This document shows positions 3,601 through 26,236 of a DNA stretch of 32,000 bases, piece after piece. The stretch is taken from contig NZ_CP007026.1 of NCBI RefSeq assembly GCF_000812185.1, positions 234,426-266,425 on the forward strand. Direction: 5' to 3'. Position 1 is the first letter of the stretch. Every line of letters starts with the position of its first letter. The stretch comes from Candidatus Nitrosopelagicus brevis (GTDB lineage: Archaea; Thermoproteota; Nitrososphaeria; Nitrososphaerales; Nitrosopumilaceae). Under the pieces are notes generated by a model. It ran no database searches, was not told the origin of the DNA, and worked only from the letters and a program-made list of their open reading frames with translations. Position numbers and translations under genes: made by a program.

Positions 3601-3963
3601 AAAATCCATGCTAGAGCAAGAGGTCAAGTCCAGATGCTTACTAAACAACCAACTGAAGGTCGTGCTCGTGGTGGTGGTTTAAGATTTGGTGAAATGGAAC
3701 GTGACTGTTTAATTGCATATGGTGCATCAATGCTTCTAAAAGATAGATTGTTGGATGAATCTGATAAAACTGACATTTTACTATGTGAAAAATGTGGATT
3801 AACCGGTTATCATGATGCAAGAAAAAGAAAATTTGTCTGTGCACAATGTGGTGAGAATGCACCTATATCATCTGTATCCGTTGCATATGCTTTCAAACTA
3901 CTTTTACAAGAAATTCTAAGTCTTAACATCGCACCGAGATTGAAACTAAAGGAGAGAGTATAA
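616..3963 (+). CDS. rpoB: DNA-directed RNA polymerase subunit B (Rpo2), unsplit
   Basis: 1115 aa. Conserved RNAP beta-like motifs are present: GYFIINGSERV, SHLRRV, ICPSETPEGSNCGLVKNLAL, FASRHGQKG, GGLRFGEMERDCLIAYGAS. There is a C-terminal Cys4 zinc ribbon (CEKCG...CAQCG). Confidence 0.97.
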   Translation: MAENYNQRWPVIQDILRREGIARQHLTSFDEFLDNGLQSIIQEVGQIEIENAEYPYKIQLGKIKLQQPRMMELDGSITHVTPAEARLRNISYVAPIMMEASVVEDGKTLETRFVHIGDMPVMVKSHACILNTFTDQKLIDHQEDPRDPGGYFIINGSERVVVGLEDLSYNKIIVDAEKVGGKIVHKAKVYSSIIGYRAKLELIMKDDGMIVAKIPGSPVDIPVVTLMRALGLESDKDIAGAVSLVDEIQDHLEGSFEKAGDVPTSKDAIVYISKRIAPGMLEEFQIKRAETLLDWGLLPHLGKHPENRKEKAHFMGEAACKLLELKLGWIDPDDKDHYGNKVIKFAGQMLADLFRTAFRNLVRDMKYQLERSGQKRGINAVAAAIRPGIVSDKLNNAIATGNWGRGRVGVTQLLDRTNYLSTISHLRRVQSPLSRTQPNFEARDLHSTHFGRICPSETPEGSNCGLVKNLALSAIISQNVPSEEIVEKLFDIGVSDLVSTSNDVKKDGTRVFVDGKLIGFHKDGQNLVDQMREFRRTSKIHPHVGISIHKPEEEGATQRLYVNCNAGRVLRPLVIIKDGKTLLSNDILEKISKKLISWNDLVRMGVIELLDANEEENCYVTFDDKNTKKFTHMEIFPSAILGAGASIIPYPEHNQSPRNTYESAMAKQSLGFSTPMMNTSTYVRQHFMLYPQTPIVSTRAMNLLGMEERPAGVNCTVAVLPFDGYNIEDAIVLNRSSVDRGLFRTFFYRIYDTEAKQYPGGMRDNFEVPNADDNVRGYKGEKAYRMLEDDGIVATESGVDGGDILIGKTSPPRFMEEYKEFETSGPYRRDTSVGVRPSEHGVVDTVVMTQSNEGGKMYKIRVRDMRIPEIGDKFASRHGQKGVLGILAKQEDLPYTEQGIQPDVLINPHAFPSRMTVGMMMESVCGKAAALRGKQFDGSAFVGEKMDIVKEILDKQGFKYSGKEKMYDGRTGKAFEVDTFIGVVYYQKLHHMVSDKIHARARGQVQMLTKQPTEGRARGGGLRFGEMERDCLIAYGASMLLKDRLLDESDKTDILLCEKCGLTGYHDARKRKFVCAQCGENAPISSVSVAYAFKLLLQEILSLNIAPRLKLKERV

Positions 3964-10459: not shown

Positions 10460-10603
10460 TTAAGTCAAGTCTCCATCTTTGAGTTTTTTAAGCTCTAAAA
10501 TTCTTAAACACTCCTCAAGCTCTTCTGGAAGATGATCATTAATTGGCCGTTCACAATTCTTGCAAATTGTTCCTTCCATATCTGAATCTGGTTTTGCCAT
10601 CAT
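10460..10603 (-). CDS. Small Cys/His protein, 47 aa, below the ORF-track cutoff
   Basis: Hand translation gives MMAKPDSDMEGTICKNCERPINDHLPEELEECLRILELKKLKDGDLT. It contains CxxC plus a downstream His and Cys. It starts 3 nt after the stop of the upstream 60-aa gene on the same strand. Confidence 0.35.
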   Translation of the reverse strand: MMAKPDSDMEGTICKNCERPINDHLPEELEECLRILELKKLKDGDLT

Positions 10604-10606
10604 GGT

Positions 10607-10789
10607 TTATCGCCAGTCCTTCTTAACAGATTCACATTTAGGACATTTAAGTCCGTTAGTCTCTTCACCGCATTTTTTACATTTTGATGAGTATCCTATT
10701 ACATCATTTTTGCCAGTTTTTGTATATTTGAAAATTAAAATGAAAGTGACTAAAATGCCAATTGCTGCGGCAGCAACCCATAGTAACAT
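10607..10789 (-). CDS. Small membrane protein with a C-terminal zinc ribbon
   Basis: 60 aa. N-terminal TM helix (LLWVAAAAIGILVTFILIF) followed by CKKCG-x8-CPKC (a Cys4 ribbon). Confidence 0.55.
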   Translation of the reverse strand: MLLWVAAAAIGILVTFILIFKYTKTGKNDVIGYSSKCKKCGEETNGLKCPKCESVKKDWR

Positions 10790-10853
10790 ACTATACGTAA
10801 GATCTAATTCAATTAAAAACTAACTGAAAAATTCGTGAATATGTTTTATTTTT

Positions 10854-10976
10854 TTAGAATTTCCTTGAGTCGCCTTCTAATAATCCGGGACCTATGTGTA
10901 GTTTGTCTATATGACTAGAAAGTTCATCTTTGTCCTTGAATTTTGATTCACAGTAGGGACACGCATATTCTTCCAT
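10854..10976 (-). CDS. Single C2H2 zinc-finger mini-protein, 40 aa, below the ORF-track cutoff
   Basis: Hand translation gives MEEYACPYCESKFKDKDELSSHIDKLHIGPGLLEGDSRKF. This is a textbook C-x2-C-x12-H-x4-H finger. ATG at 10976, stop at 10854-10856, on the same strand as the PAC2-like gene and 44 nt downstream of it. Confidence 0.55.
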   Translation of the reverse strand: MEEYACPYCESKFKDKDELSSHIDKLHIGPGLLEGDSRKF

Positions 10977-11722: not shown

Positions 11723-11866
11723 ACCACTTTGTGAAATTTGTTGTTTAAAACATGTTTGGTACTAGAAATCAAATTGTTAGCACTATTTTGAAATTATAGC
11801 ACTAGTTAAATATCATTAACACGAACTAAGTGTATAGTTACAATCGTCCGAAGGTTCATCACCTGC

Positions 11867-11954
11867 GAACTGTCACCGGAGTACTAACGTTTCCGGCCTT
11901 AAGTTCGCTAAATAGAACTGTCACCGGAGTACTAACGTTTCCGGTCTTAAGTTC
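11867..11954. repeat. Tandem pair of 40-nt imperfect-palindrome units separated by 8 nt
   Basis: Unit 1 is 11867-11906 and unit 2 is 11915-11954. The sequence is gaactgtcaccggagtactaacgtttccgg(c/t)cttaagttc, with one mismatch between units. Each unit can fold as GAACT/AGTTC plus CCGGA/TCCGG stems. Confidence 0.8.
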
Positions 11955-11957
11955 ATT

Positions 11958-12125
11958 TCATACACCTAAAATTCTTTTTCTATATCTGACTAATAGACAA
12001 CTTCTACAAAGACAGTCCTTATCATCTATCTCGTTTTTTGACAATTTTGGAAAATCTCCACACCAACATGATATATCATTTTCACATGAAAAATTGTCTC
12101 CACACTCGGCACATTTTTTGTTCAT
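11958..12125 (-). CDS. Cysteine-rich CWC-type mini-protein, 55 aa, missing from the ORF track
   Basis: Hand translation gives MNKKCAECGDNFSCENDISCWCGDFPKLSKNEIDDKDCLCRSCLLVRYRKRILGV. The C-x2-C...C...CWC...CLC-x2-C pattern matches the Cys_rich_CWC family. Its ATG overlaps the vWA gene stop (TAATG). Confidence 0.65.
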   Translation of the reverse strand: MNKKCAECGDNFSCENDISCWCGDFPKLSKNEIDDKDCLCRSCLLVRYRKRILGV

Positions 12126-13693
12126 TAGTTTTCTGATAGTATGCTTAACACTCTATTAGGTATGTCTGGCAATCTACTTACTGCCAAAACTTTGTCATAA
12201 CCGAGATATTTCAAATTATTTGCAATTGCTGTGGCACTAAATGTATCTCTTCCAACTCCAATCGCTGTCATCTTAATTCCTAGTGATCTATATGATTTTA
12301 GAATTAATTTGACTGCATTTGCATCTGCTGGCTCTCCATCAGACAATGTCAGGAAAATATCAGGTTTTTTTGATGTCAAAACTGGAAGCATTCTGTCATA
12401 TACTTCTGCTAATGGTGTTCCTCCATTTGCTGAAATTTGTGCTAATCTCTTAGCAGCTGAATTATTCCATTTCATTTCTGCTGGTTTTACTAACCAGCAA
12501 ACTACCTGTCTATCTACTGTATTGAATGCATACACTGAAAAATCAATTTTCAAGAATGCAAGTACTTCACAAAGTCCAATTGTTGCTTTTTTGTATTCTA
12601 TTTGCTGATCTGATACACTGGATGAATGATCAAGTAAGATAACAATACGTGATTTTATTGATTTTTTAATATCTGTAACAAATGGCTTATGAAATCCCTC
12701 GAGATATGATTCTTCATCAAAATCTTCACCTGAAATAACATGTTCCTCTTTCCATCCTGTCTTCCATTCACGAAATCTATTTTTTAAACTACTAATCAAA
12801 TCTTGATCATAAATCTTTGTTTCATCTACATTTGTTGGGTTTGGAATTTGAATTCCAATGGTTTCTGGTATTAATCCCTTATTTTCATTCTTTTTAGTTT
12901 CATCTTTAATCAAGTCAAATTCTTTAGCAATTTCTAATCCTGCCATAGCCTTGTTAGGATCTATTTTTCCTAATTCTGATTCAAGATTCTTAGTAATTTT
13001 CTGTACTGCTTTTTCAAAATCTTGTGGTGTAACAACCATTCCTGGACCTTTTAGAGGAACTGATAATGGAATTGTCATCATTGCATCAATATCTAAAATT
13101 TTTACAATGTTTGGAATGTGTTCATCCAGCCATTCTGTACCATGATTATTTTTTAGTGCCTCATCTAATTTCTCTTTAGCAAAATTGGTTGCTTTTACAA
13201 CACGTTCAAAATGACTTGGTTGCATCTCTCCTTTTACATCGCCAAATAAAAAATACTGATAAAATGCTTCTACAATTTTTGATTTTCCTAAAAGATCACC
13301 TAGATTTGGTCTGTAAATCCATTGCCATGAATAATTAAAAATTAACTCTTCATCCATTCCTTGCCAAATTTTTCTTCCAACTAATTCAACCCTTCGTCTT
13401 TCAATTGAATTTAACAAAAATCCTGATGCATGATCATTTGATTTTACATATTCACAATTTTTTATTTTCATACTTTCATACCATGCGGCAGTTCTGAATT
13501 GTCTATATCTTGAAAATTCATCTCCAATGTAATCCATAACTGGAGTGAGAATTACTTTATTTTCATTCATTCTTGTTTCATTAACTTTTTTTGGTGACAT
13601 TGTCACAATTATCTTGTCATTCTCAGACCATCGTCTGATTAAAAATGTAGAAATTTCAATTAGTGTATCATTTCTTAAAGCAACTGATGACAT
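12125..13693 (-). CDS. von Willebrand factor A domain protein (NorD/CbbO/CoxE-like partner of the AAA+ ATPase)
   Basis: 522 aa. The C-terminal vWA domain has MIDAS residues: ILLDHSSSVSD (DxSxS), ANGGTPLAE and TLSDGEPAD. The start overlaps the AAA+ gene stop (TAATG). Confidence 0.85.
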   Translation of the reverse strand: MSSVALRNDTLIEISTFLIRRWSENDKIIVTMSPKKVNETRMNENKVILTPVMDYIGDEFSRYRQFRTAAWYESMKIKNCEYVKSNDHASGFLLNSIERRRVELVGRKIWQGMDEELIFNYSWQWIYRPNLGDLLGKSKIVEAFYQYFLFGDVKGEMQPSHFERVVKATNFAKEKLDEALKNNHGTEWLDEHIPNIVKILDIDAMMTIPLSVPLKGPGMVVTPQDFEKAVQKITKNLESELGKIDPNKAMAGLEIAKEFDLIKDETKKNENKGLIPETIGIQIPNPTNVDETKIYDQDLISSLKNRFREWKTGWKEEHVISGEDFDEESYLEGFHKPFVTDIKKSIKSRIVILLDHSSSVSDQQIEYKKATIGLCEVLAFLKIDFSVYAFNTVDRQVVCWLVKPAEMKWNNSAAKRLAQISANGGTPLAEVYDRMLPVLTSKKPDIFLTLSDGEPADANAVKLILKSYRSLGIKMTAIGVGRDTFSATAIANNLKYLGYDKVLAVSRLPDIPNRVLSILSEN

Positions 13694-14496
13694 TATCCTT
13701 CATACATGGATGCAATAATGTCATTAACTTTTTGTAATTCTATATTTCCCCATTGTGCATATACATTTCCAAAAACTATTTCAGCTGCTTTTTTTGGAGA
13801 CATATCTTTATCAATTAATTTTGCATATGCTATAGTTTCTCTTAATGATGGCGAATAGTATAATTCTTCAACTGATGCAGCTTGTCTCAATGTATTTGCA
13901 AGTTTAATTCCTCTTTGTAATGTCTCATTACTTGCTTCTGGAACGTGTTCCTTGACAATCTCTAGTTCTTTTTCCTCAGGTGGATAGTCCATTCTTAGTC
14001 TAATAGGAAATCTACTCAAAAGTTGTGGAGGTAGTTCTTTTGTTCCGACATGATTTAATGGATTAATTGTTGCTATTACAAACCATGATTTGTTAGCTGT
14101 CACAATTTCTCCCCCAGATTCTTTCAAAACTACTTGCCGTCTATCATCTAAAGCTTCATCTAATCTTAACAAAACATCGGCTTCTGCGGCATTAATTTCA
14201 TCTAGGTACAACATGTTACCCTCTTTCATTGATTTTATCAAAATTCCTTCATCAAATTGGATATTTCCTTCGGAAAGGCTCTTTGAACCTACAAGATGAC
14301 TCTCTCTAGTTCTCAAACTAAAGTTAATTGATTCCAGTTTCATTGATTGTTTTTTTGCAAATTCTCTAACCAGTGTAGTTTTTCCTGTACCTTTTGGACC
14401 TATCACTAAAACAAAAATTCCTTGTTCGTGCGCTTTCTCCAATATCTCAAACGCATTACTCCAGTCTAGATATTCTGGAATACTATCTTCCATCAA
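13693..14496 (-). CDS. AAA+ ATPase, MoxR / CbbQ-NirQ-NorQ (AAA_5) type
   Basis: 267 aa. Walker A GPKGTGKTT, Walker B MLYLDEINAA, sensor-1 VIATINP and LLSRF. The size and layout are typical of CbbQ/NorQ-like single-ring ATPases. Confidence 0.85.
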   Translation of the reverse strand: MMEDSIPEYLDWSNAFEILEKAHEQGIFVLVIGPKGTGKTTLVREFAKKQSMKLESINFSLRTRESHLVGSKSLSEGNIQFDEGILIKSMKEGNMLYLDEINAAEADVLLRLDEALDDRRQVVLKESGGEIVTANKSWFVIATINPLNHVGTKELPPQLLSRFPIRLRMDYPPEEKELEIVKEHVPEASNETLQRGIKLANTLRQAASVEELYYSPSLRETIAYAKLIDKDMSPKKAAEIVFGNVYAQWGNIELQKVNDIIASMYEG

Positions 14497-21519: not shown

Positions 21520-22041
21520 CTAAAGGTCTGGAGGTAAGAAATCTGCATCCTTTGATGTGTCGTAGTCTTTTGAGGTAAATTCTGCTCTGTACGTATATCC
21601 ATCTTCTATTAACTCGTTGATGAAATGTGGTGATTCTTTACCGTTGACGATAATCTTGGATTTGCTTAGTTCCATATCTCTGATAGGGAAATCCCATGAC
21701 CATAAGAAATGGCCTATCTCAAATGGATATTCCTCAGTCCACTCTGCATAGATGGTTCCATCGTCTGTTAGGGTGTAAAGCGATCTCTGGCATCCGTCTT
21801 CAAATCCTATGTTTGCTGGAATATCTGCTCTGTTCTTGTCTATGTATAATTCCAATTGGGCTGAAATGACAAATTGAGTATCTCGCTCATTTATGCAGAC
21901 TTTGAGAGGATCGTCTTTACTAATCTGACCTTGAATTAGGCTACTTCCAACTCCTACTGTAATTGCAATTATTGCGGTAATTGCTAAAAATCTTAGAGTC
22001 TTTTTTCTCTTTGCTGGATCTCCTAACCCTGGATATTTCAT
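21520..22041 (-). CDS. Uncharacterised N-terminally anchored extracytoplasmic protein linked to amoB
   Basis: 173 aa. Basic N-terminus and one TM helix (LRFLAITAIIAITVGVGSSLI), then a soluble domain with exactly two Cys (C49, C84). I did not recognise a catalytic motif. Confidence 0.65.
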   Translation of the reverse strand: MKYPGLGDPAKRKKTLRFLAITAIIAITVGVGSSLIQGQISKDDPLKVCINERDTQFVISAQLELYIDKNRADIPANIGFEDGCQRSLYTLTDDGTIYAEWTEEYPFEIGHFLWSWDFPIRDMELSKSKIIVNGKESPHFINELIEDGYTYRAEFTSKDYDTSKDADFLPPDL

Positions 22042-22558: not shown

Positions 22559-23125
22559 TTAGATTACTTGCCAAGGTCGTGTTGCAAATGTGATTACATA
22601 ACCAACTGCAATGATAATTGATTGATATGCGATGTTGGTATATGGAATAGGTTTGAGAATTGGTTCTCCTTCTACAACTACGGTTTGTCCTGGTCCAAGT
22701 CCAGGTCCTACGTGCTCAATGTTCAATTGAGTGTGGACGTGATAAACTCCTGGTTCAAGAGCACGTGCTGAGATTTCATAATCGACAACATCGTTACCTG
22801 GAATGTCAAAGACATTACCTGGTGGATCTCTTGCTAGAATCTCCCATCTGTTACCTGCGTTAGTTGACTCTGAGAAAATTGATGACCATGCACGCATGTC
22901 TGAATCAATCAAACTTACGAATGCACCGCTCAAAGTTAGAACTTCACCGGTTTGGAGGGATTGTCTGTTGAATGTTTCATCCTCAATTCGAATGAAACGA
23001 CTTTGCAATTGTGCTTGTACACCGTGGCCTTCAGCAGTTTGAATCATTGTTGCTACATTAGGTCCAAAGACTCCAACTACCATTACGGTTGCAAGTGCAA
23101 ATGCCATTACTTTTCTATCTACCAT
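22559..23125 (-). CDS. amoB: Ammonia monooxygenase subunit B (archaeal short form)
   Basis: 188 aa. N-terminal signal/TM, then EGHGVQAQLQSRFIRIED, a cupredoxin-like body and a C-terminal TM helix. It closely resembles Nitrosopumilus AmoB as I remember it, and is divergent from amoC. Confidence 0.93.
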   Translation of the reverse strand: MVDRKVMAFALATVMVVGVFGPNVATMIQTAEGHGVQAQLQSRFIRIEDETFNRQSLQTGEVLTLSGAFVSLIDSDMRAWSSIFSESTNAGNRWEILARDPPGNVFDIPGNDVVDYEISARALEPGVYHVHTQLNIEHVGPGLGPGQTVVVEGEPILKPIPYTNIAYQSIIIAVGYVITFATRPWQVI

Positions 23126-23393: not shown

Positions 23394-23957
23394 ATGGCAC
23401 AAATGCCGGCATTACTCCCAAAAGAAGTCGAAATCCAGAGATTGAAAAAAATCTGGTTAGTAGTCATCGCTATGGGATCAACAGCCGCATCCGTAGAAGT
23501 CGACAACTTTGTCGATGGTTCACTCCATCAGACTTCTATTAGAGATTCAGCATTCACTCCAGCACACTGGTGGTTATACTCTCACTTTGTAGCACTACCA
23601 CTTGGATGGGGATTCGCAGCAATCTATGATAGAAAAGTCCCAGTATTGAGAGGACCAAACAACTCTATGAACACAGGTCTAAAGATGACAATCTTAGGTT
23701 ATCTTGCAACCATGTTTACTATTGGTGTTAACGAGATGTGGCACTTTTGGTTCGTCGAAGAAATCTTCGCAGTTCCAAACCACTGGATGTTCAACATGGG
23801 TGTCGTCGTAGCCTTCATGGGTGCTCTAGCTTACGTAGTTAGAGTCTATGCAAGACTCGTCGAATTAGGTGCAGAAACACCTGGTGAAAACCCATATGTT
23901 GCAGAAATGTACAAAATGGCCCTTGAGGGTAAATTGTACAGCAGATCCATACCATAA
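23394..23957 (+). CDS. amoC: Ammonia monooxygenase subunit C
   Basis: 187 aa. MAQMPALLPKEVEIQRLKKIW..., multiple TM helices, HWWLYSHF and EMWHFW motifs. Matches archaeal AmoC. A TATA-like cttatatt lies about 27 nt upstream of the ATG. Confidence 0.95.
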   Translation: MAQMPALLPKEVEIQRLKKIWLVVIAMGSTAASVEVDNFVDGSLHQTSIRDSAFTPAHWWLYSHFVALPLGWGFAAIYDRKVPVLRGPNNSMNTGLKMTILGYLATMFTIGVNEMWHFWFVEEIFAVPNHWMFNMGVVVAFMGALAYVVRVYARLVELGAETPGENPYVAEMYKMALEGKLYSRSIP

Positions 23958-24068: not shown

Positions 24069-24431
24069 ATGACACTTCCAAAAGGATTTGGTTCAGGTGG
24101 CGGAGGCGGAGCAGGTTCTGCTGACGTCGAGAAAATGATTGGCCGTCGTGTTGAAAACATGACTGGAATGATCACTGCATCATTTATCGCAGCATGGCTA
24201 GCAACATTTGGTGGTACTGCAGCAGGATATTTTGTATATCCTTGGGCATATCCTACACCAAGCGGACATTATGCATTTATCGTCCTGACCATTATAGAAG
24301 CAATTGGTTACCTCTTCTGTGTCAAAGTTATGGAAGAAGGAACAACTAAGAAAAGTAACGGTATAGTTGGCGGAGTATTAGGTGGAGTCACCATTGGTAC
24401 AATCGCAATCGTTATGTTCGTAGGAAAATAA
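24069..24431 (+). CDS. amoX: AmoX (ORF38-like small membrane protein of the archaeal amo cluster)
   Basis: 120 aa. Gly-rich N-terminus and three hydrophobic helices. It sits between amoC and amoA, as in other AOA. Confidence 0.85.
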   Translation: MTLPKGFGSGGGGGAGSADVEKMIGRRVENMTGMITASFIAAWLATFGGTAAGYFVYPWAYPTPSGHYAFIVLTIIEAIGYLFCVKVMEEGTTKKSNGIVGGVLGGVTIGTIAIVMFVGK

Positions 24432-24542: not shown

Positions 24543-25193
24543 ATGGTCTGGCTTAGACGATGTACTCACTACTTATTCATAGTAGTAGTCGCAGTCAACT
24601 CAACTTTGCTAACAATCAACGCAGGGGACTACATCTTCTATACTGATTGGGCCTGGACATCGTTTGTAGTATTCTCAATATCTCAAACACTTATGCTCAC
24701 TGTAGGTGCGTGTTACTATCTCACCTTCACTGGAGTTCCAGGAACCGCAACGTACTATGCATTAATCATGACAGTCTACACATGGATTGCAAAAGGTGCA
24801 TGGTTCGCATTAGGTTACCCATATGACTTCATCGTTACACCAGTTTGGCTACCATCAGCAATGCTGTTGGACTTAGCGTACTGGGCAACAAAGAAGAATA
24901 AGCACTCTCTGATACTGTTCGGCGGAGTCTTAGTTGGAATGTCATTGCCACTATTCAACATGGTCAATTTGATCACTGTGGCTGACCCACTAGAGACTGC
25001 ATTCAAGTATCCAAGACCAACGTTACCACCATATATGACCCCGATAGAACCGCAGGTAGGTAAATTCTACAACAGCCCTGTTGCACTTGGTGCCGGTGCT
25101 GGAGCAGTATTAGCCTGTACATTTGCGGCTTTAGGTTGTAAACTTACAACATGGACATACAGATGGATGGCCGCTTGGTCAAAGTGGGATTAG
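24543..25193 (+). CDS. amoA: Ammonia monooxygenase subunit A
   Basis: 216 aa. MVWLRRCTHYLFIVVVAVNSTLLTINAGDYIFYTDWAWTS...WSKWD is near-identical to Nitrosopumilus AmoA as I recall it. Confidence 0.98.
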   Translation: MVWLRRCTHYLFIVVVAVNSTLLTINAGDYIFYTDWAWTSFVVFSISQTLMLTVGACYYLTFTGVPGTATYYALIMTVYTWIAKGAWFALGYPYDFIVTPVWLPSAMLLDLAYWATKKNKHSLILFGGVLVGMSLPLFNMVNLITVADPLETAFKYPRPTLPPYMTPIEPQVGKFYNSPVALGAGAGAVLACTFAALGCKLTTWTYRWMAAWSKWD

Positions 25194-25372: not shown

Positions 25373-26236
25373 TTGGCACAAGAATATAGACAAATTGCAA
25401 TATCGGAGCCAAAACCATTTGTAAAATGGGTTGGAGGAAAAAGGCAACTCATGCAAGAATTGGAAAATAATTTTCCAAAACAATTTGGAACATATCATGA
25501 GCCATTCTTAGGTGGAGGTGCTGTAATGTTCAATTTGTTATCAAAAGAACCAAAATTGTCATGCAATGTATCTGATTTTAACTCTGATTTGATATTGGCA
25601 TATATTACAATTCGTGATAAACTTGGAAAACTCATAGAATCTTTAGAAAACCACTCAAAGAATTACCACGATGATTCTACAGAATACTATTATGAAGTAA
25701 GAAAACAAGAGCCAAAACTACAGATTGAAAAAGTATCTAGATTAATTTTCCTCAACAGGACCTGTTTTAATGGATTATACCGTGTAAACAAAAAAGGTCA
25801 ATTCAACGTACCTCTTGGCAGATACACAAATCCAAATATTGTAAATAAAGAAAATCTAACTTCTGTTAGTAAAATTCTACAATCTGAAAAAATCAAAATT
25901 TCATGCAGAGGTTTTGAGGCAGTTTTAGACGATACCAAAAAGGGTGATTTGATATATTTTGATCCTCCATATCAGCCAATTAGCAGTACTGCAAATTTTA
26001 CTAGCTACACTCATAGAGATTTCACTGAAGATGACCTTGAGAGATTAGCCACTTTGGCAAATCAACTCAATTCCAAAGGCTGTCATGTATTACTCTCAAA
26101 TTCAAATTCCAAAGTTGTTAAGGATATTTTTTCGGAAAAGCATTGGAAAATTTCTTCAATAAATGCAAATCGAGCAATCAACTCTAATGCTCAAAAGAGA
26201 ACTGGACACAAAGAAATCATAATAAAAAATTATTAA
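25373..26236 (+). CDS. Dam-type (D12 class) N6-adenine DNA methyltransferase
   Basis: 287 aa. KPFVKWVGGKRQL, the AdoMet motif EPFLGGGAV, NRTCFNGLYRVN and catalytic IYFDPPY. It needs the TTG start at 25373, because the conserved N-terminal motif precedes the first in-frame ATG. Confidence 0.85.
   Translation: MAQEYRQIAISEPKPFVKWVGGKRQLMQELENNFPKQFGTYHEPFLGGGAVMFNLLSKEPKLSCNVSDFNSDLILAYITIRDKLGKLIESLENHSKNYHDDSTEYYYEVRKQEPKLQIEKVSRLIFLNRTCFNGLYRVNKKGQFNVPLGRYTNPNIVNKENLTSVSKILQSEKIKISCRGFEAVLDDTKKGDLIYFDPPYQPISSTANFTSYTHRDFTEDDLERLATLANQLNSKGCHVLLSNSNSKVVKDIFSEKHWKISSINANRAINSNAQKRTGHKEIIIKNY

Follow-up and report, generated by a model that had tools for sequence, protein, structure and literature searches.

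The ATPase-vWA pairs NorQ/NorD, which inserts FeB into the nitric oxide reductase cNOR, CbbQ/CbbO, which is a Rubisco activase, and CobS/CobT of the aerobic cobaltochelatase CobNST are thought to share one working mode. For NorQD the mechanism has been described, together with the N-terminal domain-linker-VWA build of NorD and CbbO (PMC13036017, PMC9976466), and the motif GRxLL/IxxxxT in the helix-2 insert of NorQ contacts the finger of NorD (PMC13036017). A viral cobST cluster has also been reported (PMC8651126), and a phage MoxR-metallopeptidase-vWA pair was proposed to act in virion assembly, where the tail chaperones of Acidianus two-tailed virus (ATV) were cited (PMC7824862). In ammonia-oxidizing archaea (AOA), a pair of this type has been labeled norQ/norD since the Cenarchaeum fosmids of 2006 (PMC1403158); it is also discussed in two other papers, and the absence of the catalytic NorB from AOA has been noted repeatedly (PMC4084955, PMC6790972). 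In this study, we analyzed the AOA pair and the small gene that follows it, which encodes a Cys-rich CWC protein, in a 32,000-nt stretch of Candidatus Nitrosopelagicus brevis (NZ_CP007026.1, positions 234,426 to 266,425; hereafter, the window).

An earlier note on this DNA described the three genes as a chained operon and proposed that they encode a machine for the maturation of a metal center. The observation was confirmed, but the interpretation is supported only in part. Judged from the sequences, the ATPase and its partner belong to a compact clade of archaeal and viral MoxR-vWA pairs, of the kind known as viral CobS/CobT or MoxR-metallopeptidase-vWA. The CWC gene has a much narrower link to this pair.

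The ATPase-vWA pair

The three genes are all on the minus strand. The MoxR-class AAA_5 ATPase is encoded at 13693-14493 (266 aa; AJA92736.1 / WP_048104598.1), the vWA/MIDAS partner at 12125-13693 including the stop codon (522 aa; AJA93157.1 / WP_048104596.1) and the CWC protein at 11958-12125 (55 aa; AJA92097.1 / UniProt A0A0A7UZB5, named "Cysteine-rich CWC"). Exact look-up found all three products in public records of Ca. Nitrosopelagicus brevis. Thus, the 55-aa ORF, which had been thought to be previously uncalled, is identical to a deposited protein, and its cluster contains 177 near-identical members. The ATPase, recorded as "MoxR family ATPase", exactly matches a public protein that starts from the ATG at 14493. 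The longer form of 267 aa given in the earlier note (13693-14496) would start one codon upstream, from the TTG at 14496. At both the ATPase/vWA and the vWA/CWC junctions the sequence is TAATG, as claimed, and the A of the ATG is the final base of the preceding stop codon. However, the same 1-nt stop/start overlap is found at positions 3963 (rpoB/rpoA') and 20154 (ribosomal protein S15/DHH-family, GAN/RecJ-like), and accounts for four of approximately 21 co-directional junctions in the window. Because these overlaps join seemingly unrelated genes, an overlap alone does not prove a shared function.

We then compared 80 loci from Nitrosopumilaceae, with one genome per species. The ATPase/vWA junction was TAATG or TGATG in 68 of the 77 loci that have both genes, and TAGATG in four more. 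This conservation is far beyond chance. Furthermore, a co-directional run of genes for seryl-tRNA synthetase, S3Ae, an RNA-binding protein, geranylgeranyl reductase, the ATPase and the vWA protein was observed in 47-68 loci. Throughout Nitrosopumilaceae, the ATPase and vWA genes form a core unit that is passed on vertically and coupled in translation.

The ATPase contains Walker A (GPKGTGKT), Walker B (LYLDE), sensor 1 (ATINP), arginine-finger (SRFPIR) and sensor 2 (SLRE) motifs. All of them are invariant in the orthologues, in agreement with the motif assignment in the earlier note. The protein matches Pfam AAA_5 at 1e-24, and its identity is 70-77% among AOA genera and 52-60% to archaeal and virus-like relatives. 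When the sequence was searched against the PDB, NorQ (9qhd, 6.7e-21) and CbbQ (5c3c, 1.6e-15) were found; with a profile of the ATPase family, NorQ was the best match (8e-24), followed by CbbQ and then by CobS (9ujv, E 5e-11) and a generic MoxR. Midasin also scored highly, only because it has several AAA_5 modules. The best score among the libraries tested was obtained with phrog_249, the phage "CobS" family (E 4.5e-38, 132.5 bits, residues 18-257). CbbQ_C (PF08406) gave 20.4 bits on the window ATPase against a cut-off of 20.6, and only two of ten orthologues reached E 1e-3. When the helix-2 insert was aligned by its offset from Walker B, the AOA consensus was G69-S/T-K71-x-L73…I/V (GSKSL…I in the window), in which only the G and L of the NorQ motif are kept.

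The vWA partner can be divided into three parts. The N-terminal domain (aa 1-210; 13064-13693) consists of three short strands followed by helices and is modeled by AlphaFold2 with a predicted local distance difference test score (pLDDT) of 80-96. The linker (aa 211-345; 12659-13063) includes a highly conserved segment just before the VWA domain (aa 285-345), and the C-terminal VWA domain (aa 346-522; 12128-12658) has a beta-alpha-beta fold in the model. The pLDDT of the whole model is 71.7: the N-terminal domain is confident over aa 6-210, and the linker has low confidence. Although pLDDT falls below 50 over aa 260-295 and 309-345, many of these columns are invariant in the alignments. The DxSxS motif of the MIDAS, D355-H-S357-S-S359, could be read directly from the sequence (12617-12631), and neither its residues nor T426 and D452 vary among 36 orthologues and 18 distant relatives. 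Thus, the complete MIDAS that had been claimed is present, although the Pfam VWA match itself is weak (23.0 bits; cut-off, 23.8).

A Foldseek search of the PDB with the vWA model placed the NorD VWA chains from the NorQD cryo-EM structures (2026) at the top (E 3e-7, 14-16% identity), followed by the MIDAS domain of MDN1 (midasin). The alignments to NorD cover 240-274 columns, compared with a VWA core of 175 aa. The conserved segment of aa 285-345 is therefore a candidate for a NorD-like finger. In sequence searches, however, vWA profiles (A1 and A3) did not find NorD in the PDB even at E 10, nor a chain of any kind, and a profile of the N-terminal domain (A8) gave no meaningful PDB match. The earlier assignment of the first two genes was upheld: one encodes an AAA_5 ATPase of the MoxR class, and the other its vWA/MIDAS partner, which has the N-terminal domain-linker-VWA build of NorD and CbbO. 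NCBIfam contained no specific family for the ATPase, the vWA protein, the CWC protein or ten distant vWA relatives. PADLOC returned generic AAA matches only and no defense system.

A wider archaeal and viral family

An exhaustive profile search with the vWA protein against 1.84 billion representatives yielded only 448 clusters at E 1e-3. Among those that carry a name are Bathyarchaeia, a "Thaumarchaeota archaeon" from a hot spring and Jingweiarchaeum, a DPANN archaeon. Over the full length, their identity to the window protein is 26-28%, and BLASTP against relatives gave full-length values of 26-31%. In every context that we examined, an AAA_5 ATPase gene lies immediately upstream of the vWA gene. 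The identity of this ATPase to that of the window is 59-60% in two virus-like contigs (L089 and L090) and one IMG/VR contig (L137), 56% in Bathyarchaeia and 52% in a DPANN-type contig (L088). The IMG/VR contig, which carries the pair, was the one true relative found with the pattern LDEALDDRR; a scan with a generic Walker A pattern had yielded only phage ATPases of 20-30% identity.

The settings of these pairs vary. In L089, the pair is followed by genes for the primase large subunit, a TGT-like protein and a family-B DNA polymerase. In L090, it is found among genes for ParB, a Sak4-like AAA_24 protein, a radical-SAM enzyme and PTPS. In L088, it comes after an STIV B116-like gene, and in L091 the setting is cellular. 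The ATPases of the relatives carry an extra N-terminal region, in which C2H2-like zinc fingers can be seen in L089 (1442-4543) and L090 (3943-6905). In these two contigs the gene next to the vWA gene is a conserved one of approximately 105 aa that is not Cys-rich; therefore, the "third gene" is a different one there. In L088 (304-3901), the neighbors of the pair are the STIV B116-like gene and genes for a 161-aa zinc-ribbon protein and a 69-aa protein with an Sm-like-looking sequence. This contig may be a viral or mobile element.

The structural model of the partner is consistent with this family placement. In BFVD, it gave full-length matches of 600-700 columns (E 2e-12 to 1e-10) to "CobT-like" vWA proteins from Gordonia phages, haloarchaeal tailed viruses and Thermus phage P74-26; ATV ORF892 appeared at rank 40.

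The N-terminal domain of the partner aligns with a domain that bears an HExxH site in the archaeal and viral relatives. The distant relatives possess an invariant W-H-E-A/S-M-H…E-D-Y-R-I-E sequence approximately 300 residues ahead of the MIDAS, and HExxH is present at this site in approximately 60 of 79 full-length representatives. In contrast, the window protein (WYESMK) and its seven closest clusters read W-Y-E-S/A-M-K/R. Column-by-column alignment with the WHEAMH of the non-AOA relatives places the decayed site at Y72-E73-S74-M75-K76 (13466-13480). Both histidines of HExxH have thus been lost in the ammonia oxidizers, and we therefore propose that the partner is now a non-catalytic adaptor. 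The contrast between partners with an intact active site and those with a dead one could be used to find the function of the family.

The CWC gene and the surrounding sequence

The CWC ORF is a real gene. Among the window and 11 related Nitrosopelagicus loci its length is kept at 55 codons, and over 66 pairs the mean pN is 0.154 and the mean pS 0.624 (pN/pS approximately 0.25). Because pN is well below pS, the ORF is coding and under purifying selection. None of the eight Cys varies among the 17 sequences of related loci. A wider set of 27 database relatives has seven of them without exception and the eighth in at least 90% of the sequences. The match of the window protein to Pfam PF14375 (Cys_rich_CWC) is weak (20.6 bits; cut-off, 24). 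However, all 27 relatives match at E up to 0.1, with a best value of 8e-6, and several carry a precomputed PF14375 match. In its AlphaFold model (pLDDT 71), a region with a short beta-hairpin and a helix at the C terminus can be seen. Foldseek found nothing in the PDB below E 1 for this model, with only a faint LIM/PHD-like resemblance. From the Cys pattern, the protein probably binds a metal.

In the window, the CWC gene is co-transcribed and translationally coupled with the pair. The earlier note had asked about its conservation and its overlap with the vWA stop codon across AOA. The ORF and its cysteines are indeed conserved, but the overlap is confined to some pelagic loci and the gene is missing from most others. 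By a motif scan over the 80 loci, CWC was adjacent to vWA in 19, all from pelagic marine clades and with varying gene order, and was absent in 61. Approximately 50 of the loci lacking it, from Nitrosotenuis, Nitrosotalea, Nitrosopumilus and others, extend downstream for at least 1 kb. A rhodanese-lactamase protein, an ASCH protein or something else is encoded directly after vWA in Nitrosotenuis, Nitrosotalea-like, Nitrosopumilus and other loci. Within the N. brevis clade, CWC overlaps the vWA stop in the window and 10 intact loci and is followed by PAC2, while L012 has a 2-nt spacer. The 1-nt overlap is also kept in L086 and L087. In another pelagic lineage, CWC overlaps vWA and is followed by LarE and LarC on the opposite strand. 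In seven deeper marine loci the order is vWA-PAC2-CWC and the CWC protein is approximately 76 aa long, with an extra C-terminal tail; in L046, this 76-aa form begins 13 nt after vWA. Elsewhere, a 40%-identical Nitrosopumilaceae homologue follows an L7Ae-S28e-L24e-NDK-aIF5B run in freshwater contigs, and other distant homologues sit among sugar-modification genes. The link of CWC to the pair is thus limited to pelagic marine lineages, and the most suitable interpretation of the protein is that of an accessory or passenger confined to certain lineages, not of a core subunit.

Directly 3' of the CWC stop codon there are two tandem 48-nt repeats (11867-11962, minus strand), and the upstream copy overlaps the stop. 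Each copy folds as a two-tier hairpin (GAACU…CCGGAG…CUCCGG…AGUUC; folding z-score -3.25). Together with the adjacent region of the window (11780-11866), the repeats were compared with related loci: a conserved stretch of approximately 110 nt (GGTGATGAACCTTCGGAC…AATGATATTTAACTAGTGC) is found with one 48-nt copy between CWC and PAC2 in L002, L003 and L006. The repeats and the stretch had no match in Rfam; at the gathering threshold, a scan of the whole window detected three tRNAs only and nothing at the ATPase-vWA-CWC locus. A GUGAUGA box in the stretch resembles that of a C/D-box small RNA, but it has no D, D' or C' box in register and we rejected this candidate. In L006 (6001-7709; a Red Sea metagenome-assembled genome), the CWC ORF is truncated, with two 48-nt copies in place of its 3' third; in addition, the match to the ATPase is incomplete and that to vWA starts from residue 18. 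This state is either real decay of the locus or the result of poor assembly. Downstream of PAC2 (10460-10976, minus strand), the window contains further small Cys-containing ORFs of 40 aa (C2H2-like), 60 aa (a transmembrane helix and CxxC…CxxC) and 47 aa, which are conserved in Nitrosopelagicus loci. Therefore, small genes of the zinc-finger type are common in this stretch.

On the other side of the pair, the amo cluster lies approximately 8 kb from the ATPase gene. It comprises amoB (22559-23125, minus strand), amoC (23394-23957, plus strand), a 120-aa ORF in the amoX position (24069-24431, plus strand) and amoA (24543-25193, plus strand). Two Nitrosotenuis contigs (L139 and L140) have the same amo-to-vWA layout, in which the co-directional run reaches back through genes for Pcc1, the DHH protein and S15 to amoB and amoC. 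Directly after amoB, the window has a conserved 173-aa ORF without a Pfam match (21520-22041, minus strand). Its equivalents in Nitrosotenuis occupy the same position and are 178 aa (L139, 1238-1774) and 172 aa (L140, 1691-2209) long, and the product may be a further protein associated with ammonia monooxygenase (AMO). A gene for a D12-class N6-adenine DNA methyltransferase comes immediately after amoA (25373-26236, plus strand).

Function of the pair and comparison with known systems

It is very probable that the pair is a MoxR/vWA remodeling chaperone. For the locus as a whole, we consider a two-protein chaperone of this type, with a small neighboring gene unrelated by descent, to be the likely explanation. 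By analogy with NorQD, the 266-aa ATPase would form a hexameric ring, and one 522-aa partner would dock on it, with the conserved segment before the VWA domain and the conserved helix at the C terminus as its contacts. The MIDAS of the partner may grip the carboxylate of an acidic residue in the client protein. Finally, the long, flexible linker that joins the N-terminal and VWA domains would be pulled at the expense of ATP, so that the client is remodeled. Several points weigh against this explanation. Ring formation, docking and remodeling are all drawn from analogy, and the closest clusters from outside Nitrosopumilaceae (P0305-P0311) are taxonomically unassigned. Moreover, at least four different local arrangements occur in the pelagic clades, and in each of them CWC and vWA are separated by one gene at most; this closeness could reflect selection for linkage and a real functional tie, and it is the best remaining argument for such a tie.

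The nature of the client is a related question. A metal-center enzyme is suggested by analogy with the described pairs, and we propose it only tentatively. AMO in particular is an unlikely client. The full-length relatives of the pair in Bathyarchaeia, DPANN and virus-like contigs, in which neither AMO nor NirK is expected, argue against an ancestral tie to these enzymes and weaken the proposal of AMO, NirK or a multicopper oxidase as the original client. In the context of cluster P0307, nirK was not found within 9 kb. On the other hand, a derived client specific to AOA is conceivable, given that the block from amo to vWA is conserved and that HExxH has decayed specifically in AOA. The earlier view, that all three proteins form one maturation machine in which CWC is the metal-binding or metal-donating subunit and the client is one of these three enzymes, has in its favor the 1-nt vWA/CWC overlap in the window, the 10 intact N. 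brevis-clade loci and L086/L087, the position of CWC at most one gene from vWA in all pelagic arrangements, its eight invariant Cys, the amo cluster at a spacing that is conserved in Nitrosotenuis, and nirK near norD/norQ in Nitrososphaera evergladensis (PMC4084955). However, as a conserved three-part machine it does not hold, given that CWC is beside vWA in 19 of 80 loci only, with changing order, and has homologues after aIF5B or in sugar-modification contexts. Relatives of the pair occur where no multicopper oxidase is expected either, housekeeping genes stand between amo and the pair, and 1-nt overlaps also connect seemingly unrelated genes of the window. Therefore, we regard it as an unlikely explanation. 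Slightly less likely still is a function in assembly, with the pair as a housekeeping or virus-related chaperone that takes no part in metal insertion. It would be either the domesticated form or the source of the viral MoxR-vWA assembly chaperone, and would remodel a protein complex common to many archaea or act in virus-host conflict. The 59-60% identity of the virus-like and IMG/VR ATPases, the relatives in a genome-reduced DPANN lineage beside an STIV B116-like gene, the virion-assembly role proposed for the phage pair (PMC7824862) and the ribosomal, tRNA-synthetase and PAC2 neighbors in AOA are consistent with this idea. Nevertheless, the pair is located in a stable chromosomal block of Nitrosopumilaceae without mobile-element genes, PADLOC gave no defense-system match, and the missing HExxH suggests that the role has changed in AOA. 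Parts of these ideas can be combined: the AOA pair would be a peptidase-dead, domesticated descendant, or the host source, of a viral-type MoxR-zincin-vWA module, re-tooled in the ammonia-oxidizer ancestor into a non-proteolytic maturation chaperone for an AOA metalloenzyme (for example AMO, from the same conserved block), to which pelagic lineages then added CWC as a metal-handling partner. We give this scenario only a slim chance.

Two readings that follow current names are far less probable. As a bona fide NorQ/NorD, the pair would insert the non-heme iron into nitric oxide reductase. NorQ is its best single-domain match in the PDB and the NorD VWA its best fold match, some ATPase orthologues are named NorQ at the JGI, and the label is common in the literature (PMC1403158, PMC10011576). 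However, the vWA profile does not reach NorD by sequence, the helix-2 insert reads GSKSL…I, CbbQ_C passes in two of ten orthologues only, the phage CobS-like family scores much higher, and NorB and NorC are not known in AOA (PMC4084955, PMC6790972). No norCB client gene is present in the window or within 6-10 kb in related loci. We thus consider this reading very improbable: the AOA pair is not a NorQ/NorD orthologue. Equally hard to credit is a cobaltochelatase CobS/CobT that inserts cobalt in cobalamin synthesis, as was proposed for the viral cobST clusters. Although phrog_249 and phrog_5298 are annotated under porphyrin/cobalamin biosynthesis, the BFVD matches are named CobT-like and AOA do make cobalamin, Thaumarchaeota lack CobNST, including CobN, and rely on the anaerobic pathway with CbiX (PMC4303638). 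The score of solved CobS is below those of NorQ and CbbQ, and cobalamin genes were adjacent to the pair in none of the loci examined.

The practical value of these results is the correction of the "archaeal NorQ/NorD" label. In genome and metatranscriptomic papers, archaeal "norQ/norD" has been taken to hint that AOA reduce nitric oxide or form N2O (e.g. PMC10011576). Because the AOA pair is not a NorQ/NorD orthologue, this inference should be dropped or softened. The results also place the pair in the same compact family as widespread, uncharacterized viral "CobS/CobT" genes, with cellular members in other archaea. The CWC protein is one more conserved small Cys-rich protein, and its link to the pair is too narrow for a new three-part system.

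Compared with NorQ/NorD (PDB 9qh4-9qhg), the AOA ATPase has the same size (approximately 270 aa) and motif set, with NorQ as its best solved homologue, and the partner likewise consists of an N-terminal domain, a disordered linker and a C-terminal VWA domain with a MIDAS. In contrast, the partner is 522 aa long, against approximately 640 aa in NorD, and has no sequence similarity to it; the ATPase lacks the helix-2 insert motif, and its CbbQ_C score is under the cut-off. AOA fix carbon by the 3-hydroxypropionate/4-hydroxybutyrate cycle. CbbQ/CbbO (5c3c, 6l1q) is also composed of an AAA_5 ATPase and a vWA partner, and CbbQ is the second-best solved group. However, CbbQ_C is sub-threshold in most AOA orthologues, the AOA partner is far shorter than CbbO (approximately 760 aa), and no Rubisco gene was found near the pair in the window or the loci examined. 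CobS/CobT (9ujv) resembles the pair in its AAA+ ring and vWA partner, and is related in sequence (E 5e-11), but at a lower score than the other two systems. The small protein resembles the uncharacterized PF14375 family in its CWC signature and Cys spacing, but scores below the cut-off of that family. In ATV, p618 (MoxR) and p892 (vWA) form another pair in an archaeal setting without an active peptidase; however, it belongs to a virus and works on the tails of virions (cited in PMC7824862), and its match to the AOA partner is much weaker and partial. The closest likeness is to the viral MoxR-(metallopeptidase)-vWA pair of tailed phages and archaeal tailed viruses (phrog_249 and phrog_5298; PMC8651126, PMC7824862). 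Both systems have two adjacent coupled genes, the AOA ATPase falls in phrog_249, and the partners share a full-length fold of N-terminal domain, linker and VWA with a MIDAS. The AOA copy differs in that it is chromosomal, in a conserved cellular block, its ATPase lacks the N-terminal zinc-finger extension of 90-110 aa, and its partner has neither His of HExxH. Thus, the AOA pair itself was already known; what is new is that it groups with the viral-type family and has a decayed active site, and that CWC, a real gene, is linked to it narrowly and in variable order.

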